Source: Eledone cirrhosa
Taxonomy: Eukaryota
Assembly (NCBI GenBank): GCA_964016885.1
Contig: OZ024742.1
Location: forward strand, 235,414,001-235,478,000
Direction of reading: 5' to 3'
Length of the DNA: 64,000 nt
Shown: piece by piece, positions 1,612 to 56,262 of the stretch
Layout of the letters: each line of letters starts with the position of its first letter
How positions within the stretch are numbered: the stretch's first letter is position 1
Notes under the pieces: generated by a model
The model's database searches: none
What the model was told of the DNA's origin: nothing
Seen by the model: only the letters and a program-made list of their open reading frames with translations
Made by a program: the position numbers and the translations under genes

Positions 1612-1860
1612 TAGAGAACTCTCTACTGATTAGAGGTCAGATCTTCTGCGATCAATAAAACTTCCGTTATGTTAAATTCATTCCGTTTATTTTGTTTTTT
1701 ACATTTGTTTACACTATCTTGGCAATAACTAATTAAGTACTGAAGTTAATTAGGAGATTGTTCATTAATCAGAAGAAAATAGAGATATCCTGTAAGAACT
1801 AATTGAAAGTTCGGATCTATCATCTCAGTACATCTCATAACTACATTGCTATGTAAGTAT
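1612..1860 (+). promoter_or_regulatory. Putative 5' non-coding exons/promoter of ZNF gene 1
   Basis: CTCTACTGATTAGAG|GTCAG (GT at 1636), ACTTCCGTTATG and AT|GTAAGT (1853); the same block recurs upstream of all four plus-strand ZNF genes; acceptor TTACAG at 3721. Confidence 0.6.
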
Positions 1861-22440: not shown

Positions 22441-23763
22441 ATGGAGGAGAAAGCAGAACCTGAAACTAATCTGACACAGGAAAATACAGATGTTAGATCC
22501 CACTCTTGTGATATATGTGGGAAGTTATTCACTACAAGAAATTTGTTATCTTGTCATAAATGTATTCACACAGGAAAAAAACTACATCAATGTGATGTCT
22601 GTGGTAAAACATTCTCTCAAAGTAGTCATTTCTCTCGACACAAACGTATTCACACAGGAGAAAAACCATATCAATGTGATATCTGTGGTAAAAGTTTCTC
22701 TCAAAAGTATAATTTCTCTCAACATAAACGTGTTCACACAGGGGAGAAACCATACCGTTGTGATGATTGTGGTAAAGCATTCTCTGAAAATGGTGGCTTA
22801 GTTGCCCACAAACGAATTCACACAGGAGAAAAACCATACAAATGTGATATCTGTGACAGAGCATTTTCTGTACCTGGTAATTTAGTTACTCACAAACGTG
22901 TTCACACAGGAGAAAAACCATACGAATGTGATGTCTGTGGTAAATCATACTCTGGAAGTTCCAATTTGACTACCCACAAACGTACTCACACAGAAGAGAA
23001 TCCATACCACTGTGATATTTGTGATAAAAAATTTTCAGGGAGTGCTGCTTTGTCTCGCCACATACGTCTTCACACAGGAGAAAAACCATACCATTGTGAT
23101 ATCTGTGATAAATCATTCTCTCAAATTGCTCATTTCACTCGACACATACGTATTCACTCAGGAGAAAGACCATACCACTGTGATATATGTGGTAAGACAT
23201 TTCCTGAAAGTGGTCATCTCTCTCGACACAAACGTATTCACTCCGGGGAGAAACCATACCAATGTAATGTCTGTGGTAAAGCATTCTCTGAGAAGGGTCA
23301 TCTAGTTGATCACAAACGTACTCACACAGGAGAAAGACCATACAAATGTGATATCTGTGGTAAAGCATTCGCCCTTTCTAGCACTTTAGTTTCCCACAAA
23401 CGTATTCACACTGGAAAAAGACCATACTACTGTGATATGTGTGGTAAAACATATTCCCAAAGTGCTGATTTGTCTCTCCACCAGCGTATTCACACAGAAG
23501 AAAGACCGTATGACTGTGATATTTGCGGTAAAACATGTTCTGGAAGTGCTAATTTGTCACGGCACATACGTATTCATACAGGCTTAAAACCATACCACTG
23601 TGATATCTGTGGCAAAACATTTTCTCAAAGTGGTCATTTCTCTCGACACAAACGTATTCATACAGGAGAGAGACCATATCAATGTGATATCTGTAGTGAA
23701 ACATTTTATCGGAGTGATAATTTAACTCAACACAAACGTATCCATACAGGGGAGAAATCATAG
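22441..23763 (+). CDS. Poly-C2H2 zinc finger protein, 440 aa, 15 fingers
   Basis: 15 intact C2H2 fingers; in-frame TAA at 22429. Confidence 0.95.
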
Positions 23764-26101
23764 CTTGTTAGATATTTTCTACAAATATCAATATATCTTA
23801 TAGTAAATAAACTTATTTGTATGGAGTTTACTGTCATTATCATAATCAATTGTTTTAATATTTATTATTCTATCTCAGATCCCATTCTGTCATTTATATG
23901 TACTAAGGACAGCAGGCCACTTCCTTGATGGCACTAAGATTTTGTATTCTGAAAAATATACACCAAATTGATAAACGTTAAGTACACTGGTTTGTTTTTA
24001 ATCAAACCTCTTGCCATTGTCTCACGAGAAATATGCTCCCTGTGGTTCTACATCTTCATGAAAAACACAAATTATATATTATATAATCTAACACTATCCT
24101 GAACTAAGCTGTAGAATATATCAGCTATTTTCTAGACTTGATCCATCATGCTGAGTTCACTGTAATTGTCCATTTCCAGTGCATTTTCTTTGTTGCAGTT
24201 GATATGATTATGTTAGTTATTTCGGTTAACACCAGATTAATTAAAAAACATATTTAATACAGTAACTATGTATATTGACACTTTCAACATAACAGCTATC
24301 CTTGATAGACCTCTTGCTTTCTTTTCCATTATCTCTTTATTAGACTTATTTACCACACTGAAGCTAACCTTGATAGCTGGACTATTTGTTTATTCCACAT
24401 GGAGTAATTCGTCATTATCCCATTCATACTTAGCCTGAATTTTTGCAACAGTGGACTCCATTAAAGACATCCAAGGACTTGATGGTGGTGTTAAATCAGA
24501 TGACAGATTAAGTCTACCATCCAAAAAACATGTTGGCTTCCTCAGAAACCATAAATTTATAATCAATAAACCAATGACGTTTTAGTGAACATATAAATAT
24601 ATTTCATTAATGTCCATTGAAAGTACATATACAGCTTGAGTTAATATTATAGAGAAACTCATTTCCCATATGTAATGTAACTAAAATTTATGTTGACAAA
24701 AACAGAAACTAAATTAATAGTCAATACAACAATGTACATATTTTTCAAATTGATCTTCACCAGTAACTGTTTACTTTAAAGCTCTTAGTTATTTTATAAT
24801 TTGTTGATAAAAACTAAATATAGTGTTTATGACAGTTGAACAATATTAATTGATAATGTATGATAATTATTAGGTTATGGGAACATACATTGAAGAACCA
24901 TTGGTGTTAACCTTTGATATACCTGCTTCTTTTAGAACATCTTTTTTAACTCTTTTGTTACCACAGTCCTAATGAAATGCACCATTTGGAAGGATTTACT
25001 AAAATTATTAATTATTTCATTGTTAAGATAGTATTTGATTATGGTGGAAAGATTTTAGAGATATGCAGCTTTGTATTGTAAAACCAGGGATGGTTTCAGG
25101 CTGTTTCATATTAAAAGAATTAAACTCTACTTTTGACACCATCCTTGCATTTGTATTATCATTTAAAAAACCTATCAGATTTCTAAATAGGATACCATCT
25201 CTTTCATTTACTACAGAATTGTAAATGCCTTAGGCAGTACAATTTCAAAAAGAGTTAAAAACTTGTCAACCAATTTTTTAAATATAACTGTTGTTAATGA
25301 TAGCTTTTAGAACTTTTTTGTAAGTATTCTTTTACTTGCTTCAGTCCTTTGACTGCAGCCATACTAGGGCACAGCTTTGAAGAGATTTGGTGAATCATAT
25401 TGACCCCAATACTTATTTTCAAGTCTGATACTTATTTTATCCATCTCTTTTTGGTGGATTGCTAAATTATGGGACACAAATATGGGCATTGTGACCACTG
25501 AGGATGATGTCAGGTCAACTGAGCTCCTGAAAAAACTGCTGATTGACGACCTCAAGGATGTGTTTCACATGAGGTGCATGCTCTGGTACTGCCATGTCGA
25601 GCGCAATGAGGGCTGGATCAGCTAAGTGTTGAATATCAATCCAGGAGGCAGTAGAGACCCAGGAAGACCAAAAAGGACTCGGATGGATGTTTGTTGGGAT
25701 CAAGCTAGGCTTGGCTTGGCCTGGCCCAAGTGAGACCAGCTGCCAGAAAAACATGGAGTGCTGTCAGGCAGGACCCAACCCTACTTAAGGATTAATTTGC
25801 GTCCTACATAATCAAAAACTGGATGATGATGATTTAATGTTCATTTTATCTGCAAGCAAAAGTTGGACAGACCAAGTCAGTACTTAATTAGGGCTTTCTA
25901 AACAGTTTCTGTCTACTGAATTTCACTCACAGGGGTCAGTAAATGACACTAGCCCAAGATGTCACACAGTGGGATTGAAGCTGGAACTTATGATTGTGAA
26001 GCAAACTTCTTAACCATTCAGCTATAGTGCATCCACTAAGGAGTTGAAGGCTACCAAAAATCTCTTTAGATGTGTGTGGGGGGGGGGGGGGGGTCTTGCT
26101 T

Positions 26102-26791
26102 TAATATTTCTCATTGAAAATTTTCTTAGCTATGGTGACCTACCCCAGATAGGTTACAACTGTATATGCCTTACAAAATGCTTTAATCCTTTTGTTAGCA
26201 TATTTCTATTACATGCATTGTATTTCAATTAATGAAAAATAATATTTCTCATTGAAAATTTTCTTAGCTATGGTGACCTACCCCAGATAGGTTACAACTG
26301 TATATGCCTTACAAAATGCTTTAATCCTTTTGTTAGCATATTTCTATTACATGCATTGTATTTCAATTAATGAAAAATAATATTTCTCATTGAAAATTTT
26401 CTTAGCTATGGTGACCTACCCCAGATAGGTTACAACTGTATATGCCTTACAAAATGCTTTAATCCTTTTGTTAGCATATTTCTATTACATGCATTGTATT
26501 TCAATTAATGAAAAATAATATTTCTCATTGAAAATTTTCTTAGCTATGGTGACCTACCCCAGATAGGTTACAACTGTATATGCCTTACAAAATGCTTTAA
26601 TCCTTTTGTTAGCATATTTCTATTACATGCATTGTATTTCAATTAATGAAAAATAATATTTCTCATTGAAAATTTTCTTAGCTATGGTGACCTACCCCAG
26701 ATAGGTTACAACTGTATATGCCTTACAAAATGCTTTAATCCTTTTGTTAGCATATTTCTATTACATGCATTGTATTTCAATTAATGAAAAA
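26102..26791. repeat. Five apparently identical 138 bp tandem repeats
   Basis: Unit starts TAATATTTCTCATTGAAAA at 26102, 26240, 26378, 26516 and 26654. Confidence 0.95.
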
Positions 26792-28029
26792 TTGGTGGGG
26801 CTGGGGGTTTCTAAGATTATTATTTCATTAAAATGGTATTTGTAATATAACAAAAAAGTTTGCTTATAAAATTAAGTTGCAAAATTTTAGTTTAAAAATA
26901 GGTGAGTTTAGTATCAAAATGGTTAAAAGTTTTTCGAACTTCAATTAAGACAACTAAGCCATTTTTGTGACAATTAGCATTTCTGTTAATGCAGGTGTTG
27001 GGTGCCACAATATTCCCTGGCTAGAACAGTTATTAGTACTGAAAAATAGATTTGTGGAAATTATTCATGTGACTATTATGGAAATAACGAAGAAGGGGAA
27101 ACAACTATGTGTAGATCTGAAAATATTTTAATGAGAATTTTCTCCTTTAATAACCCAAAGTAAACATTTCAAACTTTTTATACGATTTTTTAAGTAGGTG
27201 TAAAGTACATTGTTCCATTATTGAACAGTTATGTGATAGCCATCATGCTCCGTGTTATGTGAGCGTTTTTTAAAATCTATTTTCCCTAAATTCCCAGAAA
27301 TATTGAAATAGAGATGGAATTCTAATTCTGGACCTAAATATTATATGACTTGCATCTAATCTGGAAAATATTTTCCCTGAGTCGTGTGTAATTTTGTTCA
27401 ATATTATCTGTGGGTGTTATACTACAGCCTTAGAGGAACGGAATCATTTAAGTGGGCACTTCTGGATGGTTCTGCTGCTACAAGCTGACTGATGGTGTAG
27501 GGAGTGATCAAGTGTATGCCTTGCATTGTGAAATGTCACTGTCCAGGTAACTATAGCTAATCTTAACATTGTTCCTATTAATGAAATTGTTGTATTTATG
27601 TGTGACTGGGAAATACTCAACAGGGATAAAATACACCTGGCTATGTTCAAGCTATCGCGTGAGATGGACTTCTTTCTGGTAGTATCAATTGGAAAAAATA
27701 CTCGTACTTCTAATTTAAAGGGCCAGCCATGTCACGCTGAATCTCCATGAGAATTGTTTTATGGACAAACCTGTTTGTGGAATGCACAGTAATTTAACAA
27801 GCAGGCTATACCGTTGTTCAAACAACTGGAACACTTGTCATAGGGGGTCGAACATACACCCATTCTGTAAAGAGTTTTTGTTCTCACCAAATTCACTTCT
27901 TAATACTGCATCGATCTCATAGTATATTAAAAAAAACATCGATATATTTTGAAAAGAATAGAATTATAGTTTATAAATGGTTTGAAAACTGATAGTGAAA
28001 TTGTTGGTTAGCGACTATTTTGTTCCTTC

Positions 28030-32819: not shown

Positions 32820-33566
32820 ATGGATCAGAAAACTGAAGCTGAAGTTATTGATTCATCTAATCAGACACATGAAAATACAGAAGTGAAATCCCACTCTTGT
32901 GATATATGTGGGAAGTTATTCTCAACAAGCAATTTGTTATCTAGTCATAAATGTATTCACTCTGGGAAAAAAAAGCACCAGTGTGATGTCTGTGGTAAAT
33001 CATTCCCTGGGAATCGTCACCTCTCTCGACATACACGTGTTCACACAGGAGAGAAACCATTCAATTGTGAAGACTGTGGTAGAGCATTCTCCAGGTCAAG
33101 TCATTTAGTTGAGCACAAACGTACTCACACAGGAGAAAGACCATACAAATGTGATATCTGTGGTAAAGCATTTGCTATTTCTAGTACTTTAGTTTCCCAC
33201 AAACGTATTCACACTGGAAAAAGACCACACTACTGTGATATCTGTGGTAAAACATATTCTGAAAGTGATGATTTGTCTCTCCACAAACGTATTCACACAG
33301 AAGAAAGACCATATGACTGTGATATTTGTGGTAAGACAATTCCTGGAAGTGCTAATTTGTCACGGCACATACGTATTCACACAGGAGTAAGACCATACCA
33401 CTGTGATATCTGTGGTAAAACATTTGCTCAAAGTGGTCATTACTCTCGACACAGACGTATTCATACAGGAGAAAGGCCATATCAATGTGATATCTGTAGT
33501 GAAACATTTCCTAGAAGTGATAATTTAGCTAAACACAAACGTCTCCACACAGAAGGAAAACTATAG
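32820..33566 (+). CDS. Poly-C2H2 zinc finger protein, ~248 aa, 8 fingers
   Basis: 8 intact fingers; ATG at 32820 is in the same GTTATGG context as the paralogs (the ORF track starts at GTG 32811). Confidence 0.93.
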   Translation: MDQKTEAEVIDSSNQTHENTEVKSHSCDICGKLFSTSNLLSSHKCIHSGKKKHQCDVCGKSFPGNRHLSRHTRVHTGEKPFNCEDCGRAFSRSSHLVEHKRTHTGERPYKCDICGKAFAISSTLVSHKRIHTGKRPHYCDICGKTYSESDDLSLHKRIHTEERPYDCDICGKTIPGSANLSRHIRIHTGVRPYHCDICGKTFAQSGHYSRHRRIHTGERPYQCDICSETFPRSDNLAKHKRLHTEGKL

Positions 33567-33964
33567 TTATGTGATATCTATTTAATTATTTAAAAAAAAT
33601 ATAATATTCTATTTGAAAATGAACAAATTTGTTTATGTGGAATTTACTAATTTACTAGTATCATAATCATCAATGTTTTAATGTCTATTCTTCTATGCTG
33701 ACAGTTTATCAGAGATCCCTTTGTGTCTTTTATATGCACAAATATTACATATTTGGTTAGCTTGATAGTTCATTCTTCTACTTCTGTTAACTACTCTTGA
33801 AGATCTAAAGCAACAGAAATACAAGTCCTCACTCTCAAACATGTCAGAACACCCCTATATCTTTTGTGTCTTTGTACACATTCCTTGTACACAATATTAA
33901 ACTCTTACCTATTGCTTTCCTACATGTTGAGTTAACCACTTTCTAGTTGACACTAAGATTTTTG

Positions 33965-35450
33965 AACTCTCAGGCTGAATTTCATCTTCCCCAATGGCCT
34001 TGCCACATTGAGCTCTTATGACCTTAGTCTCCAAGAGATTAGTCATTGCTCCTAGCTGTACCTTGTGTACATCAGAAGATGTTATTGTTTAGGAGATCAG
34101 CGAAGTATTCTCTCCACCTCGCAAGGATGCTTCTCTCTGAAGAGAGGCGAACCTCAGATGCATTCATGATAGCAGGTGTGGAGAAGGGCTTTTTCTTATG
34201 AAGTTGGCAGATGGTCTGCCAGAACACTTTATTTGCTGATCAAGTCGGGTTCCAGCTTAACCCCAAAGTCCTCCCATGTCTTAACTTTGGATGCCTTTAC
34301 TGTCTCTGCTGCATTTCTTTGTGTCTGCTTGTACTGCAAGTGCAAGAAAGAGGACTTATTTCCAAGCCAAGGTTTGTAGGCCTCCTTCTTTGCTGGGATG
34401 GCATCTTTGAACTATTGATTGAACCAAGGGGTCCTCCTGCCATCCAGTGCCACACCAGGCCACTTTCATCTGCAGCATTTAACAGCTGAGCTGAACAATC
34501 TCCACTCCGTTTCAACGTCCTCAGTTTGCTCAGGGAGTTCTCTGAATTTGGATGCAATAGTATCTGCATATCTGGTCCTGACTTCCTTATCCACCAATGT
34601 TCCCACTTTATCTTGTAGGTTGACCTGAACCTGCCAGTTTTGTGGGATTCTTTGGCTTTAAGTAGTTTCAAGTTGCAGATAACTAGATGGTGATTAGTTG
34701 ATAGCTCAGCCCCTCTCTTAACATGAGCATCCAACACAGAATCAAAGAGATCAGCAACAATAACAAAATCAATTAATGATCTCTTTCCCTGTATATTTAT
34801 GGGTGTTTCTGTGATGGAAGAAGGTGTTCATAATAGAAAGTCCATTGCTAGAACAAAAGTCTAATAGGGCTTCTTTATTCGACCTGTTTACTAGCAGAAC
34901 AGCTCTGCTGAGACTGGCTGACTTGTGTGTGTTGGGTGGCCTGGATCTTTGGAAAGGCATCTAAATGGCAATTGGGAGTGATAATCTCAATTTTCAAAAA
35001 GGGAGATGAGAGATTACTCTAAATATAGAGTTATCTCCTTGTTAGGCCTCTTCGGTAAAGTCTATGCTAATGTAGGGAGATTGTTGAGTCCAAGCTAGCT
35101 GATGAACATTGTGGTTTTCGCCTCGGATGCAGCATAGTCGACCAAATATTCAGACTGCGGCAGATCTTTCAGAAATCATGGGAGTTCTGCCAAGAAGTGT
35201 ATTCTTGCTTTGTAGACCTCGAAAAGGCATATGACTGTGTTCCATGGGATCTGCTGTGGAAGGTTCTGCGAGAGTATGAGGTTGATGGTCAGCTTCTTTT
35301 GCCCTGATGTCGCTATACAAAGTGGAGAAGTTCAAATATCTCAGGACTGTGTTCACGAGTGATGGAAGGCAACAGGCTGAATTAAGTGCAAGAATTGTAG
35401 GAGCTGGTGCAGTAATATGCCAGCTTCAGCATTCAGTAATCAGAAGGGAG
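33965..35450. mobile_element. Rex3/Expander-like RTE LINE with inverted 5' part
   Basis: Minus-strand endonuclease region (GLSIMNTFFHH, GAELSTNHHLV) to about 34890, then plus-strand RT (AWIFGK, IISIFKKG, CFVDLEKAYD). Confidence 0.8.
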
Positions 35451-35454
35451 GTAG

Positions 35455-35820
35455 ATTCTCTTCTGAGATCAACACTGTCTAGCATTAGCCATGTGGTAAC
35501 AGTTTCCATGAATATCAGTTGCTTCTTCAGATCAACTTTCAGCTCCCAATTTTGTGCTGTTAGTAGCTGACAAGAGGGGTTGATCCTGGCAGCTGATCTT
35601 AGCTTCTCTCCAGTCCTGACAAAACATAGTCTTCTTTGCTGGGTGGAGCTGATTGCAATGCATAATCCCACTCCACGTAGTGTTCATTATGGCCTTCAGG
35701 ATGTGACTGTTGCACTCCTCATTCAGGTGTTTTGGGCAGCTGCTGAGGATGTGTTCCAGGGTTTCTCTTTTCATTCACAGAGGGCAAACTGGTGATGCCA
35801 CTTCTCCCAACGGAACAGGT
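35455..35820 (-). mobile_element. Hero/NeSL-like RLE non-LTR retrotransposon fragment
   Basis: TLEHILSSCPK..HILKAI knuckle remnant and LLTAQNWELKVDLKKQLIF. Confidence 0.65.
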
Positions 35821-37418
35821 ATGTACTGACTGTAAAGGTTTTGGTAATGTTATATAAGTGATCATCAGAGTATGAGGCCTGTATATAGCAACTTTAAATG
35901 TGTGTCTTTCTTGATTGGAGATGGTGAGGTACAAGACTTTCCTAAATATATATAGTGACTGTATTTGTATTGTTGAATGTGAATAGGTTATTTTGCCCCC
36001 ATTGAAGTATGTTCCTTGTGGCAGTGTTCATGCAAATGGTATATGTCCTTTAGAAACAATTGCTGTCTATATTATAATTCCCTACATCCTATACTCTTTA
36101 AATAAACATCATCTTGTACAAACAGGAAACTACACCTGAGTGAGCTTTTAACTTTCAGTTCTTCCTTCTCTAATTGTAATTTGTTTCCAATTTTTATCTT
36201 CTCTTCAATTTGAAACAACTAACCACTAGCATACCATTTCTCTCATGCATTGATGAGAACAAAATCAATCCCTACTTCATTCCCAAATAAAAATAGGCAG
36301 CCTCACTAGCATTCTGAAGTTTGTGTTACAAATGGTAAGATCATTTGTATCATAGAAATACAGGTATTTTAATCTTTCTTAATTATTTGTGCCATGTTCA
36401 AAACTTCCATATTTACCAGTGTATCACGCTCATGTTACCTGACATAACCTTTGAAGTTACCTGCTATAATGATGATACCAATGAGATCAATTCTTTGGAT
36501 AGCTTCAACAATGTCACCATTGAACTTAAACCTAGCTTTATTGTCTATAAATGCTATTTGTGGGGCTTATATAAAGAATCAGATGTTTCAATGTTGTAAG
36601 AGGCTAACTTTAAATATTTTATTAATTTATAAAAACTCTTCACACCCCTATGATATATGATATACTTCTGTAATATAGCTATTATTTTCTCTTCAAATGT
36701 AATCAATTCCTTTAATTGACAATGTACTTACCAGAACATTCCAGTAGATAACCTACAATTTTTGTAAAACTGTCACAAGGCATGAGAACATTTTGAATCA
36801 TGGAAAATACAATATCATTAAAATATAAACCTTGAATTATTGATTTATCTTGTTTTTCTGGGGGTAAGTCTGTTTTAATTTGTTCTGAACATTTTGTATA
36901 CATTGATATTGTCAGCAATAAGGTTTCTCATTAAAATAGTACATTATTGCTGTTGATAGAAAGAATATTTTGGTAATTTGGCTGGTGCCTGGATCTTACT
37001 AAAGGAAATATCTCATTCAGTGTTTATTAAATGCACCTTATACTGCTCGAGTTAATATAATGGAGAAACTCTTATCAAACACATTTTTCAATGTGAAATG
37101 ATAATGTATGATGATTGCTGGGTTAAAATGTAAATTGATAACCTTTAATTCTGAAATAATGAAATAAATAATCAGTAGTTTGTTGTGTGCAATGGAAATA
37201 GATGTCATAAGAACAAGATCAATGATTGAACTGGAGCAATGTGAACTAAAGTATCTAGCTCAAGGACACAACATACTATTGGGAATCAAACTTATGACCT
37301 TATGATTGTGAGCCGACACTCTAAACATTAAACCATGTGCATTTACTGATGGAAAGTAATATACTACTGAGAATTGTAAGTGAAAGAAATGAAATTAGAT
37401 TGAAGAATTGGATAGTGA

Positions 37419-37720
37419 TCATAAAATCTGTCCAGCGATTCTTTCCTGAGACATTCTAACCACATGCTCATAATATCGGAGCTGTGATATCTCAATTTGG
37501 AGAAGTAGCAGCTTTACCTGGAGAGACTCTATTCTCTGAGCTACACACTCTATTGAGTAACATTACTCCAAAGACACTTCAGACCAGTAGGAGACCCAGG
37601 AGTAGACAATGAACTTCATGATCGAGCTGGATCAATTGGATATGCTTGCTTCTGACAGGACCTGCTGGAAGGAGTATTTGAGGACACGACCCTCTCAGGA
37701 ATAAGTGGATAAAGAAAAAG
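37419..37720. mobile_element. Short Rex3/Expander-like RTE copy with 5' inversion and perfect 15 bp TSD
   Basis: AGAATTGGATAGTGA at 37404-37418 and 37721-37735; 37420-37580 is the reverse complement of about 43575-43720; the sense part ends CCCTCTCAGGAATAAGTGG plus an A/G tail. Confidence 0.85.
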
Positions 37721-37974
37721 AGAATTGGATAGTGAAAAGTGTATTAGAAAATGTGTAAAAAACAAGTAACATTATAATTGTAATTAAATTGAAAGAGTCA
37801 CTACATGATCACTCAACTTACTAGATGAACACATTGGAAAATTAATGCTGGACACACTATGCCTAAAAAGATATTGTCATCGCATGAAAGTTTTTTTACG
37901 TGTCTACTTGACAGTGCTAACATGGAGTTAAGCAACACACAATGTATGTGTGTGTGTGTGTATGTCTATATATA

Positions 37975-38274
37975 CAGTGGAACCTCAGTTCAAGAACTTA
38001 ATTTGTTCCTGAAGGCTATTCATCAGCCGAAATGTTCGTAAACCGAAACTATTTTTCCCATACGTTGAGAGAGACTGTGTATGAAAGATATCACCACCGT
38101 AACTAACTACACAGCAAGCAATGATTTCCCGCTGATATTCCAATTCTGTTGCCAACCGTTGTTGCTGGCTTGCATGTTCATTACTTGAGACACTGATTGT
38201 GAACCGAGACATTTTTTGTTCAGAAAAATTGTTTGTGAACTGATGTGAAGTGTTCGTGAGCCGAGGTTTCAGTG
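37975..38274. mobile_element. pogo/Tigger-type MITE
   Basis: TA-CAGTGGAACCTCAGTTC ... GAGCCGAGGTTTCAGTG imperfect TIRs. Confidence 0.75.
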
Positions 38275-38829
38275 TGTATATATAAAGGGTGTATATGAAG
38301 GCATATACAATATGTTTATGTACAACATACAAGAGTCTTGTGATGAGTATAAATAATGTAATATATATTCTTTTATTGGTATTAGTCATCATAGGAATGC
38401 AGGCACGTTCACGGGTTGAGTTCATCATATTGACCCCATTTAAAAGACTGGTATTTATTTTATTGGCCTCTATGAGGGCCAGCTGAAATGTTCATTGGCT
38501 GACTATGAAGGAGTGCTGCTAGAGCTGTGAAATCTTGCATGCATTCATTTCAACTCTTATTAATAACTGCATTGTTTCTTTTCTTGGACTATGTTGAAAA
38601 ATAAATCTCATTTGGTCATTCCATGAGAGTATCTTGGTCAGTCTGTGAACTTTTCAGCCAACTCTCGTACTTGAACTGCTATGTTACAGGTCAGGAACAG
38701 CACTATTTGATAAGTGGTGTAAGTGTAAACTTAGTAGGTCATAAGATAGTCCCTGTGAACACAGGGAAAATTCCAGAGGACACTAACCCGACTGATAAAA
38801 TTGTATATAAACGTAGGGAAGGCAGCTGG

Positions 38830-39240
38830 AATGCTAAAATCATCTAGCAATGCAGGTTATGAGCTAGTCAGACACATAATTAATCAAGTAGTAAAGGATG
38901 GTCATACTCAGTGATTGGCATAGAAGTATCATTGTAAACTGTTATAAGGGCAAAGGATCACTAGAGAGACATCAAGTCAATGGACCAAGGTCATAAAAGT
39001 TACTGAAAGGGTTAACACAACTAATTAGAGACAGAATCAAGCTAGATGAGCTGCAGTTTGATTTTATGCTAGGTAAAGGTACTACTGGTGCCCTCTTCCT
39101 AATGAGACAACTGCAGAAATACTTAGCTAAGAGTATGGCTCTGTACTTAGCATTCATTGAATTAGAGAAGGCCTTTGACAGGGTCTCCCACTCTGTAAAG
39201 TGCTGGGATCTAAAGAAGAAAGGTGTAGTCAAGTGATTCT
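38830..39240 (+). mobile_element. RTE LINE RT fragment
   Basis: QFDFMLGKGTTGALFLMRQLQ, LAFIELEKAFDRV. Confidence 0.8.
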
Positions 39241-41084
39241 CAATATGGGCAGTAACACCCTCAAGAGGGCATTGTGAACTCTCAAGGGGGAGGGGCAACT
39301 TTTCAAGGCAAAGAGAGAGAGATCCAATATCCACAGCAAGCACCAAGTAAAGGATACAGGGTATTCAACTAAGCATGTTAGGTTCATCAACGAGTGTTTG
39401 AATTATGTAAAAAAGAGAAAGAAAGTAATAGGGAAAGAGTGGAATGACATGTGATGGATATGTGTCTGTTAAAGAAATGAATGTCCTATCTATTCTTGGT
39501 AAACTGCTGCTACTGACCAACCTCTCCACATCACTATTTCTCTCTCTTCATGTTCCTTTCTTTCTCCTTAACAGTGACATATTGTATTAAACATATGCTG
39601 ATGAATTCAAAACCTTAGCTGTTTGACTTGGTCACTACCAATCTCCTTTAGTTTGTCCTTCTTTTATTCACTTTAACAGGGACACATACTTCAGATGTTA
39701 ATAAACCAAAAACGATCACAAAGGATCATGCTGCTTGAATTTTAAATCTCTACTTCAAATCTTTTTTTACAATAGGAAGCTACTTTTGTAAAATTTTAAA
39801 ATGTTTAGATTATATCATCAGCAGTAGCTTCTTATTCTAGAAAAAGATTTGAAATTGAAATTTAAGATTCAAGCAAGGGATTCAAAAAAGTTGTCATCAG
39901 ATAACTTCATTTGAGTCCCTCTTCATAGAAAATCCAGATTTTGATGCATTATTTATACTCTTGTAAGTTAGCCAGATCTTCAAATGGGAAGAAAGGAAAC
40001 TCTGTCATATCAACATATAGCAAGGCAATTTCACAATAAGTGGTATAAAAATTTGGTATATTTTTAGTCCTTGAAACAGCTTGATCAAAATTCTGAAACA
40101 ATTGTGAAGTATGTGTCCCCGATAAAGAGAAATAAAAGAACAGAGGAATGGTGAACAAAAGGGTGCTTGTTGTGTCCTTGATCAGGCTAGGGAGGCAGTA
40201 AGGGACTACATATAGCTTAATGAGGGAGGGGTGAGAGGGAAATGTGGCCATAAAAGTGATGTTTGGCAGTTCATTGTAGAGTGTTCCTGTCTTTCTATGC
40301 TAGCATGGTTGGGCTAGGAACCTATTTGCTTTTACTGCAAGTCTTCTGTAGTACAGCATATTGCCACTCAATCTCCTTCGTAAGGTTCAGCTTCGTGAGG
40401 TCAGCTTTTAACACTTCATCCCAAATTTTCTTTAGTCTACTTCTGCATTTTCCTCTTACATTGGTTTCAGTTATTAGATATGGCCAAGCTGGGGCATATA
40501 TATATAGGAAGAACATATTTGATTGTGAGCTCCTACAGTTTCTTCTGTTCATGACTTTACTAAGACAAGTGAAGTCATGAGCAGAAACCGAATATTTTCT
40601 TCTTAAATATTCCAACTCTGCATCCCATTATCCATCAAGTACTACTTTGATTAGTGGTCTTTCCAGGCTTAGAACCATAGCCATTCCATATATATATATA
40701 CACACACACACAATCTACTTTTAGAACTGTTGTGTGAGTTATGAATTTTGAATGTTATGTTAACTTAGGGTTAACAGTTTCAATGCATGTTTTTGACTAT
40801 GAAAAATAATCAAAGCTGGAGATGGAAAAAAGTGGGCAGCATCACCCATATACATTCAAGCACACATTGTATGTGCATATATGCATATATCCTAATAACA
40901 TTTTCAATTACAAAAGCTTTATATTTTTGAAGAATTATAGAAGTCCACACCATTAAATACTCGCTGATCCCAGCCACCTTATTTTCATTACACTCAACTT
41001 TCACCCAAAGGAAAATGAAGCATGAAAGTAACCTTTTTGACTAATTAACTGACTGGGTAACTTCTCAATTGACTGTTTTTTTTT

Positions 41085-44000
41085 ACAGCTGGATGTCCTT
41101 CATAACACCAACCAGTGTGAAACTGGGTGGTCACACTTATGAGGCACGTCTGGCCAGTTGGCTGTTCTGTACCTTGCTCATATGGGACCATGTCTTAGCT
41201 AGGTCTTTACTACTGCTAGATGTATTTCTTAACACCAATCACGTTTAATGAGAGACTGGGTGGTCACGCTCATGAAGCAAGTCTGGCCAGTTGGCCACGT
41301 CGTGCCTTGCTCATACCAGACCATGTTTCGGCTGAGTATTTACAGCTGCTCAATGTCCTTCCTAATATCAATCACATTTATAGTGTGGAGCTGGGAGGTC
41401 TCGTTAAGAGGTAGGTTTGACCAGTTGCTGCACCGAACCCTGCTCATAATGGGACCTGTGTTTTGACTGGGTTTTTACAGCTGCTGGATGCCTTTCCTAA
41501 CACCAACCAACTTTACTGTGTGGTCCCACTTATGAGGCAAATTTGGCCGTGGAATTTGGTGGTCCTGGTTTTTCTGTTGTATATTGTAGCGCCAGAGGTC
41601 TTGGTCTTGTGTCATCTCCATTAAGAGGTTCAGCTGTGCCAGGTTAGCCTTTATCATTTCATCCCATGTCTTCCTCTTCTGAGGCCCCCTACACCTTTTT
41701 ATACAGCTGTCATCCTTCATGCGCATCACATGCCTAGACCATTGCAGTCTTCTCTCTTGCACACAGCATTTGATCCCTCTTATGCCCAGTTTCGCTCTCA
41801 ATTCATTTACATTTCATTGTTCATGCACACTACTGTTACACATCCTTCGGAGCATGCAGGCTTCATTTCTTTTCAATCTACATAGATACTTGGCACGCAG
41901 TGCCCAGGTTTCACTTTCATGTAGCATTGCTGTTTGCACACAAGCATCATACAACTTGCCTTTTATCTTGTGTGAGAAACCTTCTGTAGCTAGCAGTGGC
42001 AGCAGCTCCCTGAACTTTTCCCATTCATTCCTTACTCTGCCAATTGTACTTTCTGCGCATCTACCTCCACTGCCGATTTGGTTATGCAGGTAGCAGAAGC
42101 TAATGACTATTTCTCTTGGGTCTTCTGTGCATTTAAAAGAGCTTTTTTCCTGAGAGTTTTTGCTTACTGCCCCTGTGCAACGTCCACATATGAAGTCTAT
42201 GTTCTTTGCAAGCCTGCCTGATTTCCCACTACACTTTTTATGTACCCATAATTTGCAAAGGATTGAGTTCCTACCTACTCTTTTCTGCTCGCTAGGATCT
42301 TGGACTTTGCCAGGTTGACTTTAAGGCTTTTTGTTTTCAAGCTGTGCCTCCATGTCTGAAATTTCTTCTCTAATTCTGTCAAAGGTTCAGATGTGAGAGT
42401 TAGGTCGTCAATGTATAGGAATTACCATAGGTAATCAGTCATAAATTCCTCTGTTATAGCCTGCAGGACAATAATGAACGGGGGGAGGCTTAGAACAGAG
42501 AACTGGCAGACCCCCACTTGCCCACTGAATTCATCACTGTACTCATTGTTAATTTTGGCTTTATTGGTTGGGTATTCGTATAGATACATCAGGGCAGCAA
42601 GAAGCTGACCATCGATCCCATACTCTTGCACAGCCTTCCACAGCAGGTCCTGATGAATATGGTCATATGCCTTCTCATGGTCGACAATACAAGAATATAC
42701 TTCTTGGTAATACTCCCATGATTTCTCGAATACCTGCTGCAGTGTGAATATTTGGTTGGCCCTGCTGCGTCTGGGATGAAAACCACAGTTCATCAGCTAG
42801 CATAGACTCGACAATCTCCCTGCATCACTTTACCAGACACTGAGCATAGACTTTACCAAGGAGGCTTAATAAGAAGATCCCTCTGTAATTGTAACAATCT
42901 CTCTTGTCTCCCTTTTTGAAAATTGAGATTATCATTCCTGAGTGCCATTGCTTAGGCGCCTTTCCAAAGATTCAGGCCATCCGGCACACATGAGTCGGCC
43001 AGAGAATTCCTTCTCTATTTAAGGCTTTTAACATCTTGGGCCGAGTATGTGTTCAGATAAATGGTGCTAAATCGAAACCATTGAATGTGGGAGTTGGATT
43101 ATCACTTCTCCTGTTCATTATTTACATGAACAGGATTGATTGGAAGTGGTATCATGACTGGTGCATGTAAAATTAGTAGGCTGGAATTTGCAGACATGGT
43201 GTTACTTAACTCGACATAAGATGATCTTTGACTTGCACTTGATAGGTTTGATGCCGAGTGCTGCATAGCTGGAACGGAAATCAGTGCTGTGAAAACTGAG
43301 ACACTCGTCCTCAAAAGGAAGCCTGCATGCTACATGTGAATGGAGTTCCACTGAAGCAGGTAGAGAAGTTCAAGTTCACAAGGCAGGAGGCTGAATTAAG
43401 AATTGCAGGAGCTGGTGTATTACTGCACCAGCTCCTGCAATCAGAAGAAGGAAGGTAGGCGTGAAAGCCAAACTCTTCAATTTGGTATTTGTGCCAACCC
43501 TTATACATGATCATGAATCTTGGGTAATGACTGAAAGAATACGATTATGAATAAAAGCGGCTGAAATGTGATTCCTCTAAAGGTATTTGGAGTAAAGTAA
43601 ATCAGAAATCAGAGTCACTCCAGGTAGAGCTGCTACTTCTCCGAATTGAGAGATCACAGCTCTGATACATTGGGCATGCGGTTAGAATGTCTCAGGAAAG
43701 AATTGCTAGACAGATTTTACGGGCAAAACCAACTGGTAAGAGACCCAGAGGTATACCCTGAGCAAGATGGTAGGATAACATCAATGAGCTTGGCTGGTCA
43801 CGCCTGGGGATCTAGCTGGATCAGTTGGAGACGGTTACTTCTGACAGAACTCACTGGAAGGAGTGTTTGAGGACTATGCCCTCACAACCCTCTCAGGAAT
43901 AAGTGGGCAAAGAAGACTTTATGGGTGGCCCCTCTGTATATGGCCAGTACCACCTTTACAAGCCACTCATCTACCCCTAGTTTTCAGAGGGCCTACCAGA

Positions 44001-44530
44001 TTATAGGGCAAGGGACTCTGTCAAAAGCTTTCTCTAAATGCTAAGTAGAGCAGCTTGCTTTTAGCCAAGTACTCCTGCATTTGCTTCACAAGAGGGCCTC
44101 AGTGGTGCTTTTTCCCAGCACAAATCCAAACTGCATCTCATCTAGGTGTATATGACCACTAATCAGTTGTGTGATGACTCTTTCTTTAACTTTCATGTCC
44201 TGGTTAATTAGCTTGATGCCTCTGTAGTTACTTCTCTCTAGGGCATCTCCTTTTTCCTTATAACTGTTGACAATGATGCTGTTATACCAGTCATTGGGAA
44301 TGATACCATTCTGTATTACTTCATTTTCAGTTGGTTTGCTGGTTTCCTAAAGTTTGTGTTGCAGATAGTCAGTTCATTGGCGTCACATAATTCCAGGAGT
44401 CTTGATCCTTCCCCATTTCTTGTGCCAAACCCGAAAACTATGTGGACCTCACAGTAACTGTCGCGTTATCACTCCATATATCTGTTAAAGTCGCCTGCAA
44501 TAATAGTGATGTCACAGTTTCTGGTTTGGG
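41085..44530 (-). mobile_element. RTE LINE (host), interrupted at 42571-43916 by a second RTE
   Basis: Endonuclease remnant at about 44350-44520; RT continues across the insert (..LAIYRG | PTNKAKINNEYSDEF); C-terminal RRLQWSRHVMRM; ~125 bp repeated 3' UTR units at 41085-41560. Confidence 0.8.
42571..43916. mobile_element. Rex3/Expander-like RTE with 5' inversion, nested in another RTE
   Basis: Minus-strand RT from 43040 down to LMYLYE at about 42575, plus-strand continuation from RVCVQING at about 43042 to the AAGAAGA tail; degenerate TSD CTTTATTGGTTG (42559) / CTTTATGGGTGG (43917). Confidence 0.8.
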
Positions 44531-44534
44531 AATA

Positions 44535-46453
44535 TCTATATTAATAAAGCTGACGGCTGTATGTATGTATGTAACAAACTTTTGGCCAAACGGCACCAAA
44601 TTTGCACCATAGATGTAACTTTTTCCAAGGAAGAAAGTGAGGGCATTTTTGTCTACTAAATTTTGTTATTCTTGATTAAAGATATTTTATTGTTTATTTA
44701 AAGATTCACTTCTTTAAAATTTTCAAATGTCAACACTTCCGGTTAACAATCGCTTAAATAAACATTCACATATTTTGCAGTTTATATATATCGTCTTTTC
44801 GTTTTAATGTATCATGGATAAAATTTCTGTGTATATTATCAATCTCTATCTATATTAATAAAGCTGATGGCCGTATGTAAAGTGAGGAGTACATTACTGG
44901 TACTTTATTATATATCTATATTAATAAAGCCGACGGCCGTATGTATCTATGTATGTAACAAACTATTGGCCAAACGGCTGGACCAAATGGCACCAAATTT
45001 ACATCATAGATGTAACTTTTTCCAAGGAAGAAAGTGAGGAGTACATTACTGGTACTTTATTATATATAATATATTCATTCATTCATTTCATTTCATTTTA
45101 TGTCCACTTTTTCCCTGCTTGCAAGGGTAGGACGAGAACTGATTCTGGCTTGATTTCTACAGCTGGATGCCCTTCCTAACACCAACCTCATATATAATAC
45201 AATATTCCTCTCTTTTTCTTACTCTGTCTTTTAAGATAGATACATAGCTATAACGTCGCGTGCTTATAATATCTGTCTGCATTGACTTCGCTTCTAACCA
45301 ACTTTTAATTAATTAATTATATATATATATATAATTATATATTCGTGTACATATTTTCAACAGTAATACTATACTATACTAAATATTTTCAACAGTAATA
45401 CTGTACTACATATTTTCAACAGTAATACTATACTATATATTTTCAACAGTAATACTGTACTACACTATATATTTTCAACAGTAATACTGTACCGTACTAT
45501 ATATTTTCAACAGTAATACTGTACTATATATTTTCAACAGTAATACTATACTATATGTTTTCAACGGTCATACTATGCTATCTATATTAATAAAGCTGAC
45601 GGCTGTATGTATGTAACAAACTTTTGGCAAAATGGCTGGACAAAACAGCACCAAATTCTTTAAAATTTTCAAATGTCAACACTTCCGGTTAGCGATTGCT
45701 TAAATAAACATTCATATATTTTGCAGTTTATATCATCATCATTTCACATCCGCTTTTCTCTGCTTGCAAGGGTGGGACGGGAACTGATTCTGGCTTGATT
45801 TCTACAGCTGGATGCCCTTCCTAATACCAACCCCATTTACAGTGAGTCTTGGGTCCTTTTTTTCCGTGGCGCCTACACGTCCACTTTGCAGTGGAATGAT
45901 AGGGACCCAAGTCCTATCATCTCATTTCTACAGCTGACTAAACTGGAGCAATGTGAAATAAATTGTCTTGCTCAAGGAAACAACTCACAACCTTTCGATT
46001 ACAAGCCCAATGCTCTAACCACTAAGCCACGTGCCTCCATATATATATCATCTTTTTTTTTAATGTATCATGGATTGAATTTCTGTGTATTGTCAATCTC
46101 TATCTATATTAATAAAGCTGACTAAATTACTGGTACTTTATTATATATAATACGACATATATATATTTTCAACAGTAATACTATACAACACAGACGGCTT
46201 ATCGTCTGTTTATCCAAGCAAAGCTAGGTACATGAGCTATATATATCTATATCTGGATGCTGTAGAACACACCAATGGTAGCTGGGCGCCAGCTAGTACT
46301 ATATATTTTCAACAGTAATACTATACTATACTATATATTTTCAACAGTAATACTATACTACACAGACGGCTTATCGTCTGTTTATCCAAGCGAAGCTATA
46401 TATATATATATCTGAATGCCGTAGAACACGCCAATGGTAGCCAGGCCAGCTAG
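44535..46453 (+). mobile_element. Nest of non-autonomous Helitron-like elements
   Basis: Five A|TCTATATTAATAAAGC starts (about 44535, 44849, 44915, 45581, 46103), several followed by (GTAT)n; two GC-rich ends CCAGCTAG|T (46296, 46453), the first with a hairpin. Confidence 0.7.
45350..45575. repeat. Minisatellite, ~7 copies of ATATTTTCAACAGTAATACT(A/G)TAC..
   Basis: Direct repeats of ~28-33 bp; further copies at 46163-46360. Confidence 0.9.
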
Positions 46454-48016
46454 TATACATATAAAATGTAGTGTGCTCAGTTGCAGAAAATAACTGTAAG
46501 TACAGTCAGTTGCTATAAAATATGGTAAAAACCCTTAGAGACAGAAAAAGAAGTTGGCAGCAGCATGTTATGAGGGATCAAACCTTGTATCTCTCAGATA
46601 CTAGCTGAGTGCTCTAGCTATTGAGTTAAGGGACCTCTGACAACATATTATTAATGGGCTTTTGCAGTTCCAGTCTATCAAATGCTACTCACAACACATT
46701 GGTCAATCCGATGCTATAGTAGAAGACACTTGACTAGGGTGCCATGCAGTGAGACAGAATCCAGAACTATGTGGTTGCAAAGTGAAGCCCTTAACCATAC
46801 AGCCATGCCTGCACCAACTAAGTTGGCTACTGCCATCTAAAAGGTTTACAGGAACTTGAGATGTATAATATAAAATGACTACAGCAACTGGTTGTAGGTC
46901 CTCACTAAAGTATCACAGGGATGAAATCCTTCATCTCTGATCTGCTATTATAATTCATTATAAAGCATAACATAACTAGAGATTGTTGTTTTTATATGGT
47001 TGGAATTAAATATTCTCTTAGACTTAATCTGTGATTTTGTTGTCTTAGCAATATATACCACAAACAAACAGTAATGGCAGTAGCAGTTTCGAATTTATAA
47101 AAACTGTATGACTAGATAAGCAACCTCCAAGCCCGAATGCCATCATAAAGCAACAAAAGATTGAAAATATTAAACTGTCCACATACAAGAAGAATTCTAC
47201 GCAATTAATGAAGTAATATGACCACAGCCACTAAAACCAAGCTACTGGAATGTTATAACTAACTTAGGTGTATCAAGACACAGAAATCACTAACTTTTGT
47301 TAGTGTAAGTTATGTCTGGAGACAATTTTATTAAACAATATTTTGTTACAAATGGTGTTTTCAGTGTCAAATCAATTTTTACAAAAGATAATTTTGACTG
47401 TCCAGAAAATAATTGTTTCTACTTTTGGCACAAGGCCAGTAATTACCCAGTACATTACTGGTACTTTATTTTATCGACCCCGTAAGGATGAAAGGCAAAG
47501 TCAACCTCGGCGGAAAATAATATCCAACAATTATAGTTACATTTTAATTTAAAATCTATATTTCATCACAGATCTTTAGTTTTAATATTTTACATGACTT
47601 TCTCAAATATTTGTTCTTTTTACTTCTATTTTAGAGAGAATGTTTTCAATAAATCATCTCAATATTTTCTTGCTGTATATATTTATGTTTAACATGGCTT
47701 TGAATGAGAAACATTTTCTATTACTCTCACATCTATAAAGTTCTATTACTGTTTTTCCACTTTATGAGATTGTCTCTGTAAGAAACTAATGTCAAATAAC
47801 AGTAAATATCTCCCATGTGTATTTGTGGATTACAAGAGAATAATTTCCAACATATTGTCAGTTAAAGAATTTCTAAAATATTTGAATGAAAGTACATTTG
47901 TAGCTACAATATGAGAATTCAAAGAGAATGATTTCCAACATACTTCACCATGATATATGTTCTTCAATGTCTAATTGGTGGTGGACAATATTTGCATAAG
48001 AAGAATTTCTTACACT

Positions 48017-49810
48017 TCAGTTAAAAGACTCCTTTTTAGTGTGTATTTGTTTGTGTCTTTTTAAGTTGCAGTTACTGATAAAAGATTTCCCACATATTTC
48101 ACAGTTGCAGGGTTTTTCTCCAGTGTGTATTCTATAGTGTACTGTTAAATCCCTACTCCCAACAAAGGATTTCCCACATATTTCACAATGATATGGTTTT
48201 TCTCCAGTGTGTGTACGCTTGTGAATAACAAGATGAGAATTTTGAGTGAAAGATTTCCCACATATTTCACAATGGCAGGTTTTTTTCCCAGTGTGTATTC
48301 TTTTGTGAACTACAAGATGAGAATTCTGACTAAAAGATGTCCCACATATTTCACAATGATAGGGTTTTTCTTTAGTATGTATTCTATAATGACTTGTTAA
48401 ATAACTATTATTGACAAAAGATTTTCCACACATTTCACAGTGGAAGGGTTTCTCACCTGTGTGACTACGTATATGAATTACAAGATTTGAATTATTAATA
48501 AACGATTTCCCACATATTTCACAGTGAAAGGGTTTTTCTCCAGTATGTATCCTTTTATGTCTTGCTAAACTACTGTTATCACCAAATGATTTCCTACATA
48601 TTTCACAGGAATAAGGTTTCTCTCCAGTGTGTATTCTTTTGTGTTTTGTTAAATCCCTTTTAAAGATAAAGGACTTTCCACATGTTTCACACGGATGAGG
48701 TTTTTCTCCAGTGTGTATTCTTTTATGTGTTATTAAGTAACTGTTATCAACAAAAGATTTCCCACATGTTTCACAGTGAAAAGGTTTCTCCCCAGTGTGA
48801 CTACGTATGTGGATAACAAGAGTCGACTTATTAACAAAAGATTTCCCACATACTTCACAATGAAAGAGTTTTTCCCCAGTGTGTATTCTTTTGTGTGATT
48901 TTAAGACACTGTTTGTCATAAATGATTTTCCACATATTTCACAATGATAAGGTTTTTCTCCAGTGTGATTCTGTTCGTGGACAATAAGTCTGGAGTTATT
49001 GATGAATGATTTCCCACAAAACTGGCAGTGATAATCTTTTTTCTTATAGTGTTTACGTATGTGATTTCCAAGACTACTATTAAAAGAGAAAGATTTCCCA
49101 CATATTTCACAAGAATAAGGTTTTTCTCCGGTGTGACTTCGTTTGTGGATTAGAAGATTAGAATTTTGAGTGAAAGATTTCCCACATATTTCACAGTGAA
49201 ACGGTTTTTCTCCAGTGTGTATTCTTTTGTGTTTCGTTAAATAACTTTTACTGATAAAATATTTACTACATATTTCACATTGAAAAGGTTTTTCTCCAGT
49301 GTGTCTACGTTTGTGCACTACAAGATTAGAATCCTGAGTGAAAGATTTCCCACATACTTCACAGGAATAAGGTTTTTCTCCGGTGTGTATTCTTTTGTGC
49401 TTTTTTAAATTACTTTTATTGACAAATGATTCTTGGCATATTTCACATTGGAAAGGTTTTTCTCCAGTGTGACTACGTACGTGAACTACAAGACTAGAAT
49501 TCTGAGTGAAAGATTTCCCACATGTTTCACAGGAATAAGGTTTTTCTCCAGTATGTGTTCTTTTGTGTCTTGTTAAATTATTGTCTGATACAAAATATTT
49601 CAGGCATATTTCACAATGGTAGGGTTTTTCCATATGTATTTTTTGGTGAGTGAATATTTCATGTTCTGAAGAGAATGTTTTCTTACAAATCTCACAACTA
49701 TAGTCAAGAATATTTTTGTGTAATATTTGTTTGGTAAACGTTTCACTACATGAAGGTTTCACATCAATGTACGTGTGAGTATTTAAATCTAAATTGTTAG
49801 CAGTGTCCAT
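48017..49810 (-). CDS. Poly-C2H2 zinc finger protein, 597 aa, 20 fingers (CEIC subfamily)
   Basis: 20 CxxC..HxxxH fingers with TGEKPY/F linkers. Confidence 0.95.
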   Translation of the reverse strand: MDTANNLDLNTHTYIDVKPSCSETFTKQILHKNILDYSCEICKKTFSSEHEIFTHQKIHMEKPYHCEICLKYFVSDNNLTRHKRTHTGEKPYSCETCGKSFTQNSSLVVHVRSHTGEKPFQCEICQESFVNKSNLKKHKRIHTGEKPYSCEVCGKSFTQDSNLVVHKRRHTGEKPFQCEICSKYFISKSYLTKHKRIHTGEKPFHCEICGKSFTQNSNLLIHKRSHTGEKPYSCEICGKSFSFNSSLGNHIRKHYKKKDYHCQFCGKSFINNSRLIVHEQNHTGEKPYHCEICGKSFMTNSVLKSHKRIHTGEKLFHCEVCGKSFVNKSTLVIHIRSHTGEKPFHCETCGKSFVDNSYLITHKRIHTGEKPHPCETCGKSFIFKRDLTKHKRIHTGEKPYSCEICRKSFGDNSSLARHKRIHTGEKPFHCEICGKSFINNSNLVIHIRSHTGEKPFHCEMCGKSFVNNSYLTSHYRIHTKEKPYHCEICGTSFSQNSHLVVHKRIHTGKKTCHCEICGKSFTQNSHLVIHKRTHTGEKPYHCEICGKSFVGSRDLTVHYRIHTGEKPCNCEICGKSFISNCNLKRHKQIHTKKESFN

Positions 49811-51224
49811 ATTAATTACTCAGGAATTAAAAACAAAATGAGATATGTCTGTGAGTATAGTTTAGTATGGTTCAGTTTCTTGTTATTGATATCCTAGGAC
49901 TGTTTACATGATATAATTATGTTAGATAAAGTCAATCAATTGTCTTGTATCAAGGGACTGCAAATATGCAACGTCAATATATTTTCTACTTTCCAATCAA
50001 ATGCTTTTCGCTAAATGGGTCCTTTTCAAATGGTACACATAATTACTGAATTAAAAACAAAATCCCAAACTAAATTAGGAATGTGGATAGGATTAATGGA
50101 TGTTATATAGAGTACAATGTCCTTAAATGACTGATAGCTGAGGTCCTGATAAAATCGACGTTTTTCACCAATATTGTTTTAGACCATTATCAAAGAAAAT
50201 GTGTATATATATTTATAATGCAGTATATAGAGAAGAAAACACAAAAAGGGTTATGGTTTCAGTTACAAGGGGATTAACGCGAGTCTTTATCTCCGTTTTT
50301 TTTTTATTTGATATATATATTTATATACATGTATGTGTATTTGTATACGAGTAAGAAACGATATGATAGTATAAAATCAATATCGGAGAAAGAAAATGTG
50401 TATATTCGTGTCTGCGTCGTCGTCCAATAAAAGATGATGCTTGTGAATATATGTATTTGTCAGTGTAAAATATATGTGCATGTGGTCCTAGTAACTCAGG
50501 ATTTTTCACCACGGAATGTCCCAAAGTAGACAATTTGTTCTGTATTGCCAATACAAATAATTCGTGATTTCCATTTAAGACTAACTGAAAAGTAAAGAAG
50601 GGTCAGGAACACTTAAAATCCATTATAACATGAAATAATTGTTATATACGATATAACTACAGAAGTTGGAATGATTCGAAGTAGACGGTGACACTCAAAA
50701 TTTTCCCTTTGGTTAAATGACACCGGTAACACAAATTAAATGTTCATGACATAATTTAAAACATTCAAAAATACCTTCTTTTATAACAATTTACTCCTGT
50801 GAATGTATCCAACAGATATATAATATTTACGTATCAAGTGGGAAGCTCCTGCATTGTCTTTCAACATGCTAGAAATAGCAGCCAGATCCTCCTCAAATAA
50901 TACCTGACTGTTTTAAAAATGTATGGACATATTTGACAATGGAGTCTTAGTATACCCCGAGCAAGCTGGGTGGATAATATCCCTGAACTTGATTGGTCTC
51001 ACTTGCAGATTCAGCCGGATCAGTTGGAGACGGTTGCTTCTGACAGGATCTGCTGGAAGGAGTGTTTGACGACTCTGCTCCCATGTCTCTCTTAAAATGA
51101 AGAAGAAACCTGGTGCTTCTGTAATCGATCCTGTTTAGAACATCAACTTTGCCTTTGTCACAGTTAATGATGATACTGTTACAGTATTCTTTGGGTGTGT
51201 CATCTAAGATTATACTCTATAGAG

Positions 51225-55399: not shown

Positions 55400-56262
<863 letters not shown>

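Follow-up and report, generated by a model that had tools for sequence, protein, structure and literature searches.

How does a retrotransposon family come to insert again and again with its front part turned around? The question is raised by a stretch of 64,000 nucleotides (nt) within the 3.0-Gb genome of Eledone cirrhosa (G000:C3:235414001-235478000; hereafter the window), in which three copies of a long interspersed nuclear element (LINE) of the RTE type each open with a segment in antisense orientation. We propose that these and other inverted copies are single insertions of the RTE-type LINE whose front part was reversed by twin priming, a reading to which we give a probability of about 0.8. 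In the inverted copies we observed one insertion per pair of target-site duplications (TSDs) and two arms of the same age, of which the antisense one maps closer to the element's 5' end than the sense one.

All three copies were mapped on a 3,471-nt reference of the family, and each begins with an antisense arm, as the initial annotation had described. In copy 1 the inverted arm (33954..34881, minus strand) covers element nt 2023>1041, comprising the linker and the end of the endonuclease region, and its inner end (34880..34913, minus strand; nt 38>5) is the extreme 5' end of the element, which the antisense arm thus reaches across a 1-kb deletion. The copy is inverted where the initial annotation had placed it, but its true start lies 11 nt to the left of the reported 33965. 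The sense arm (34914..35454, plus strand; ref 2041>2972, as nt 2041-2470 and 2837-2972) carries a 366-nt deletion, and the TSD of this copy is beyond testing because the 3' end is missing. Copy 2 is bracketed by a perfect TSD of 15 bp (37404..37418 and 37721..37735, both plus strand; 15/15), a score reached by 0/39 mismatched flank pairs. Three mismatched bases (37419-37421) precede its inverted arm (37422..37583, minus strand; nt 3259>3096), and the sense arm (37583..37720, plus strand; ~nt 3272-3296, then 3342-3459) ends in a decayed GAA tail. Copy 3 has an inverted arm from the first half of the reverse transcriptase (RT) region (42568..43041, minus strand; nt 2477>2002) and a sense arm with a short GAA tail (43041/43048..43916, plus strand; nt ~2474/2483>3456), joined between LMYLYE and RVCVQING as previously described. 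The annotated 10/12 TSD of copy 3 is present (candidate repeats at 42559..42570 and 43917..43928, plus strand, the left one overlapping the inverted arm by 1-3 nt), but its match of 9/10 or 10/12 was equalled by 1/39 mismatched flank pairs and is only suggestive of a genuine TSD. In all three copies no more than about 17 nt separates the outer antisense end from the point where the sense sequence restarts, and the breakpoints differ, with sense starts at ref 2041 (copy 1), ~3272 (copy 2), and 2474/2483 (copy 3). A fourth copy (50950..51092, plus strand) is a plain 3' fragment (nt 3291-3433) without an antisense arm, and the window count is therefore 3/4.

The reference is a majority sequence made in-script from 27 aligned long natural segments. 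It contains a single open reading frame (ORF) of 995 amino acids (aa) at nt 314-3298, preceded by 313 nt, and a simple motif scan places the end of the ORF ~210 aa past the FADD motif. RTE-clade LINEs are not known to carry a C-terminal zinc knuckle or an RNase H domain. Aligned copies are 81-90% identical to the reference and ~80% alike pairwise, corresponding to a decay of 10-20%. Both the reference and the copies end in (GAA)n rather than poly(A). Natural fragments matched the endonuclease family PF14529 above the cut-off and PF00078 (RVT_1) below it, and intact relatives of 950-1,060 aa (the best 67% identical) contain both the endonuclease and the RT domain; no named RTE reference, and no sequence named Rex3 or Expander, was among 73 matches. 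Hence, the family combines the features of the RTE type: one ORF with apurinic/apyrimidinic endonuclease (APE) and RT regions, no ORF1, a tandem-repeat tail, and a TSD length that compares with 7-15 bp, peaking at 10-12, for the RTE clade (as cited in PMC6007223). On these sequence features we classify it as an old, decayed RTE-type LINE of ~3.47 kb with a single predicted APE and RT ORF. Exact matches to a 19-nt word from the 3' end number 3,266 in the genome, giving at least 3,266 copies, and the median span of 90 copies anchored at this end was 332 nt. The narrower label Rex3/Expander, given in the initial annotation, is a putative one. The sequence that takes the place of the 3' end of copy 1 (35455-35860, minus strand) is a decayed fragment of another LINE type with two other genome matches only; its motifs suggest a C-terminal zinc knuckle and a restriction-like endonuclease.

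We analyzed the geometry of 55 distinct inversions, pooled from the window and from samples that were similarity-ranked, 3'-anchored, or RT-anchored, excluding a 5'-anchored set. Dropped from the table were L082 (nested), L012 and L028 (tail at the outer end), L144, L161 (a 16-nt candidate), and L213 (other geometry), and the sense starts of c2, L097, and L322 were set by hand from finer alignments. The outer antisense end lay within 30 nt of the sense start in 24/55 copies, compared with a mean of 1.5 and a maximum of 8 in 20,000 permutations, and within 60 nt in 27/55. A gap of more than 60 nt separated the arms in another 27/55, and an overlap of more than 60 nt was found once, whereas 16.5 were expected when arms were permuted between copies. 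In all but one or two of the 55, the antisense arm contains sequence upstream of the sense start; it reaches the RNA 5' end in 9/55 and has a 3' tail at the outer end in none. Genome-order samples alone gave 13/36 arms within 30 nt and 0/36 with the 3' tail outermost. The two arms showed non-CpG divergences of 9.5% and 8.9%, which were correlated between copies (Spearman 0.43, P=0.009, n=36, a set that retains L082). Because divergence is equal and correlated, the arms do not come from different subfamilies.

Large deletions remove 8% of positions in 74 plain copies. Since large gaps between arms are six times commoner than this background, most of them arose at insertion, and we rejected later deletion as their origin. 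We also rejected splicing as a source of the internal deletions, as no GT..AG pattern was seen at 30 such junctions in family copies.

TSDs support the same picture. Among the 39 inverted copies that retain a tail, 16 had a TSD score of at least 9 at the outer antisense end, with a null rate of 0.6%, and none had a TSD at the sense start. Plain truncated copies reached this score less often (10/73, P=0.002), and retention was alike in inversions with small gaps (8/18) and large gaps (7/20). In 13 inverted and 10 truncated copies the TSDs measured 9-15 bp, with most at 10-13, under a score threshold that hides shorter ones. Microhomology of the TSD end with the RNA that lies past the internal priming site, which the initial annotation had proposed to look for, was enriched at the level of at least 1 nt (14/18 against 7.9 simulated, P=0.004; L014, which has a weak TSD, excluded), with lengths of 1-4 nt and a mean of 1.2 nt against 0.67 expected. 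At the inversion junction itself the alignment ends overlap in 29/56 cases, given here as a raw count.

We estimated how often the family inverts from samples taken on contig C1, all of which favor copies that retained the anchoring word. The 3'-anchored sample comprised 90 of the first 91 listed matches of the 19-nt word in genome order (one was skipped), and after removal of L082 as a nested insertion it held 8 clear and 3 doubtful inversions (L097, L143, L161). An RT-anchored sample, built from the first 30 matches of four words with 449, 742, 615, and 2,226 matches, gave 26 inversions among 105 distinct loci (25%, Wilson interval 17-34%), or 26/102 when copies borne by a host repeat were counted once. 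A 5'-anchored sample from the first 30 matches of three words (191, 138, and 262 matches) gave 25/77. The inverted share is thus about 10% of all copies and about 25-30% of longer copies. The high frequency asserted in the initial annotation is supported, but the three of three on which it was based overstate the rate.

Several observations accompany these samples. Thirteen loci (L006, L011, L017, L023, L025, L026, L027, L231, L233, L235, L240, L241, and L243) share both flanks and represent one truncated copy (from nt 2808) inside an amplified host repeat of ~2 kb, and common 5' ends at nt 2808 were accordingly rejected as a hot spot. The inverted arms of L537, L561, and L563 abut or nearly abut the sense start and run to the element 5' end with internal jumps of 1.5-1.7 kb, like copy 1. 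Within the 5'-anchored loci (L514-L603), the lower ends of the 5' pieces cluster near nt 251-254 and 408-420, and 28/77 have no 3' end within 1.5 kb. Among distant relatives on metagenome contigs (33-62% protein identity to the query), 1/47 distinct loci carried an antisense piece, which overlapped the sense arm; this survey at the protein level misses untranslated and short arms, and neither supports nor excludes a lineage-wide trait.

We compared the family with a second RTE group of the same genome, for which two similarity-ranked and two pattern samples were merged by script into 108 distinct loci and mapped on a majority reference and four natural copies. Only 2/108 were inversion candidates (L289 and L398, the latter carrying a short palindrome), compared with 26/105 in the family (Fisher P=2.6e-7), in a group whose greater diversity makes short antisense arms harder to detect. 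With a candidate from the window (21116-21243) added, the comparison became 26/102 against 3/109 (P=1.2e-6). The expectation that the other RTE family would mostly lack inversions was therefore borne out. Four head-to-head pairs in the second group keep their own 3' regions, and in both pairs that were directly compared the arms belong to different subfamilies. The window candidate belongs to a second-group copy at 20363-21243 (minus strand) that starts with a 128-nt antisense piece (ref B 1731>1602), followed by a sense arm from 1719 with a 12-nt arm overlap, and is a candidate 5' inversion. Further second-group sequences lie at 41063-42548, 38825-39228, and 43924-44432; the group consists of several subfamilies that are 65-90% alike, with a repetitive 3' untranslated region, and a window copy has a Cys/His-rich stretch beyond the RT core.

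The breakpoints in the family are not evenly spread. Outer ends fell at nt 548-586 in 6/56 cases (scan P=0.02 overall), and in an independent sample anchored at nt 421, 15/30 pieces ended at nt 512-581. The neighboring stretches 441-511 and 582-651 had no ends, and windows of the same size at three RT anchors contained 12/90 (P=9e-5). The pieces ending at this hot spot include inverted arms, sense joins onto a short 3' piece (L591, L601, L575, L580), and orphans, all with different flanks. The hot spot coincides with the start of the endonuclease domain (TWN motif, aa 84). Neither an RNA fold (z -1.3 against mononucleotide shuffles) nor 5'-3' base pairing (best complementary match score 18) was convincing there. 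We rejected an error of the reference, since 50 loci (overlapping loci not removed) align through nt 500-700, and a single amplified bipartite master, since flanks and junctions all differ. A canonical motif resembling a 5' splice donor lies just beyond the hot spot at nt ~585-592 of the majority reference, and only one inverted arm ends exactly there.

Twin priming would account for these insertions as follows. The endonuclease would nick the bottom strand, and RT copying would start from the (GAA)n tail. The top strand would be cut about 9-15 nt away before first-strand synthesis finishes, and its 3' overhang could then pair with a few internal bases of the RNA and prime a second cDNA toward the RNA 5' end. 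The first cDNA would halt either at the second priming site, so that the arms meet (24/55), or earlier, leaving a gap (27/55), after which both cDNAs would be joined and repaired. An early stop of the first cDNA fits a family whose copies span a median of only 332 nt. The order of events and the use of a single RNA template are inferred. We favor twin priming, as did the initial annotation, because the geometry, the TSD placement, the microhomology, and the equal age of the arms all fit it.

Some observations weigh against this interpretation. Gaps of 127-2,600 nt occur in half of the inversions, and the arms of these give no proof of descent from one RNA molecule. A convincing TSD was missing in 23/39 testable inversions, in copies that are 10-20% decayed, and no score of at least 9 was found in either of two sets of five testable hot-spot copies. 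The microhomology is short, reaching 2 nt or more in 5/18 cases (null 2.8, P=0.15), although decay may hide some of it, and 1-6 unassigned bases stand at 6/15 junctions. Moreover, L082 proved to be nested, and L012 and L028, with a 3' tail at the outer end, had to be set aside before counting. Neither a de novo insertion nor an empty site was encountered.

The strongest competing explanation, which we nevertheless consider unlikely, is a route with two templates or repair, in which the top strand would be primed on a second RNA or a loose cDNA would be end-joined 5' of an ordinary truncated insertion. A plentiful RNA fragment from the 5' region, with its end near nt 510-580, could be the donor. 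Such a route would suit the 27/55 large gaps, the short microhomology and common filler bases, and the occurrence of hot-spot pieces as sense joins and orphans as well; inverted snRNA (small nuclear RNA)-L1 chimeras indicate that priming in trans occurs in mammals (PMC4476161). An independent template explains neither the 24/55 copies whose arms meet within 30 nt nor the near-absence of overlaps (1 against 16.5 expected), and this route accounts for part of the large-gap class at most.

Less probable still are chance head-to-head neighbors, nesting of insertions, or DNA inversions that took place later, in a genome dense with repeats. With at least 3,266 family copies such events do happen: L082 is nested, and L012, L028, and the four second-group pairs are head-to-head. 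Chance neighbors would however retain their own 3' ends (0/55) and place a TSD where the sense arm starts (none found). An inversion after insertion would produce an outer sense stub or flip the TSD, and the equally dense second RTE group yields head-to-head pairs and not the inversion geometry. TSD placement and arm adjacency rule these events out for the class; independent or nested insertions were rejected on TSD placement, 3' tails, and continuation past the tail.

Snap-back, in which the first cDNA serves as its own template after folding back, before the 5' side is joined, as described for R2 proteins and their insertions (PMC11371274), is slightly less probable again. A few copies (L097, L018, part of L214, and L398 in the second RTE group) have long overlaps or 5' ends with a short palindrome, as it would produce. 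It duplicates only sense-arm sequence, however, and the antisense arms hold upstream sequence in all but 1-2 of the 55; the non-overlap of the arms rules it out for the inversion class, and it stands for L097-like cases only. An assembly artefact is scarcely credible: the junctions were assessed from the assembly, but the copies are short and ~80% alike, have different flanks and breakpoints, and contain the inverted structure between their TSDs.

Returning to the hot spot, twin priming suggests one tentative and more speculative explanation, that the RNA stretch at nt 512-581 may be tethered near the target and so concentrate second priming and template jumps. This would involve binding of the protein to the element 5' region; the R2Bm protein binds a 5' RNA region (PMC6895275). 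The main alternative is that an abundant 5' RNA fragment is used in trans, in line with hot-spot copies mostly lacking a clear TSD. A broader proposal, that a lineage of RTE elements without ORF1 twin-primes as often as human L1 and that its protein holds the RNA at nt ~510-580 at the target for top-strand priming or RT jumps, is doubtful at present. If true, inverted insertions would share one mechanism with the bipartite 5'+3' derivatives that RTE elements and their short interspersed nuclear elements (SINEs) typically form.

The surroundings of the inverted copies in the window include seven arrays of 84-nt repeats, which read as tandem C2H2 zinc-finger genes and form a cluster around them. 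Four are on the plus strand (about 4075-5940, 13840-15060, 22420-23910, and 32880-33720) and three on the minus strand (about 47900-49930, 55450-56200, and 58400-59720). A near-perfect 138-nt tandem array and a 27-32-nt minisatellite lie at 25964-26930 and 45321-46414, respectively.

Finally, we asked how these insertions relate to known systems. The twin-priming model for L1 is said to go back to Ostertag and Kazazian in 2001, and Kojima and Okada reportedly described 5' inversion in 2009 as confined to mammalian L1. In de novo LINE assays, human L1 in human cells gave the only inversions apart from one Nimb-2_DR insert in chicken cells, and no RTE element was among those assayed (PMC4245944). 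Our search, which left out most subscription papers and supplements, turned up no account of twin priming recurring in a LINE of the RTE clade or of an invertebrate, and Repbase or supplements may hold mentions; the word "inversion" is absent from the main text of two octopus repeat papers. We consider the case well explained as a known mechanism in a previously unreported setting, with inversion as a family-specific trait. The literature consulted presents 5' inversion as something that L1 does in mammalian cells, with a dependence on both element and host. Because the neighboring RTE group almost never inverts in the same genome, our comparison points to the element's own protein as the cause, through the timing of top-strand cleavage and the length of the overhang. 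The two RTE groups thus offer a small single-protein pair for comparison, and the hot spot is a lead to why RTE elements often produce bipartite 5'+3' derivatives.

In R2 snap-back, antisense element sequence stands at the 5' junction and the cDNA is duplicated (PMC11371274), unlike in our family, whose arms do not overlap. RTE elements give rise to bipartite non-autonomous 5'+3' derivatives, both LINEs and SINEs, by a cause given as unknown in a paper from which a word search returned neither "inversion" nor "inverted" (PMC5786205). The sense joins of a 5' part to the 3' end at the hot spot (L591, L601, L575, L580) resemble these derivatives. They differ in that each join is unique with no amplified master seen, in that the same pieces also occur inverted, and in that the 5' part stops within the ORF, where the endonuclease domain starts. 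The closest counterpart is the inverted L1 of human and chimpanzee, which likewise has an inverted 5' arm and a sense 3' arm within one TSD pair, arms that are adjacent or separated by a deletion, and TSDs better preserved than in truncated copies (PMC2912911). An inversion has been proposed to need a 3' overhang of ~10-20 nt (PMC4245944), with which the family TSDs of 9-15 bp agree. In contrast to L1, the family is of the single-ORF RTE type without ORF1, has a (GAA)n tail and TSDs of 9-15 bp, resides in an invertebrate-type genome, and shows many kilobase gaps and a breakpoint hot spot at nt 512-581. Its microhomology is also shorter than that of inverted human L1, ~70% of which has 2-5 nt (PMC2912911, Kojima 2010). 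Nevertheless, the inverted share of longer copies (25-32%) is similar to the 30.9% of 2,068 human L1 insertions that are inverted (PMC2912911).

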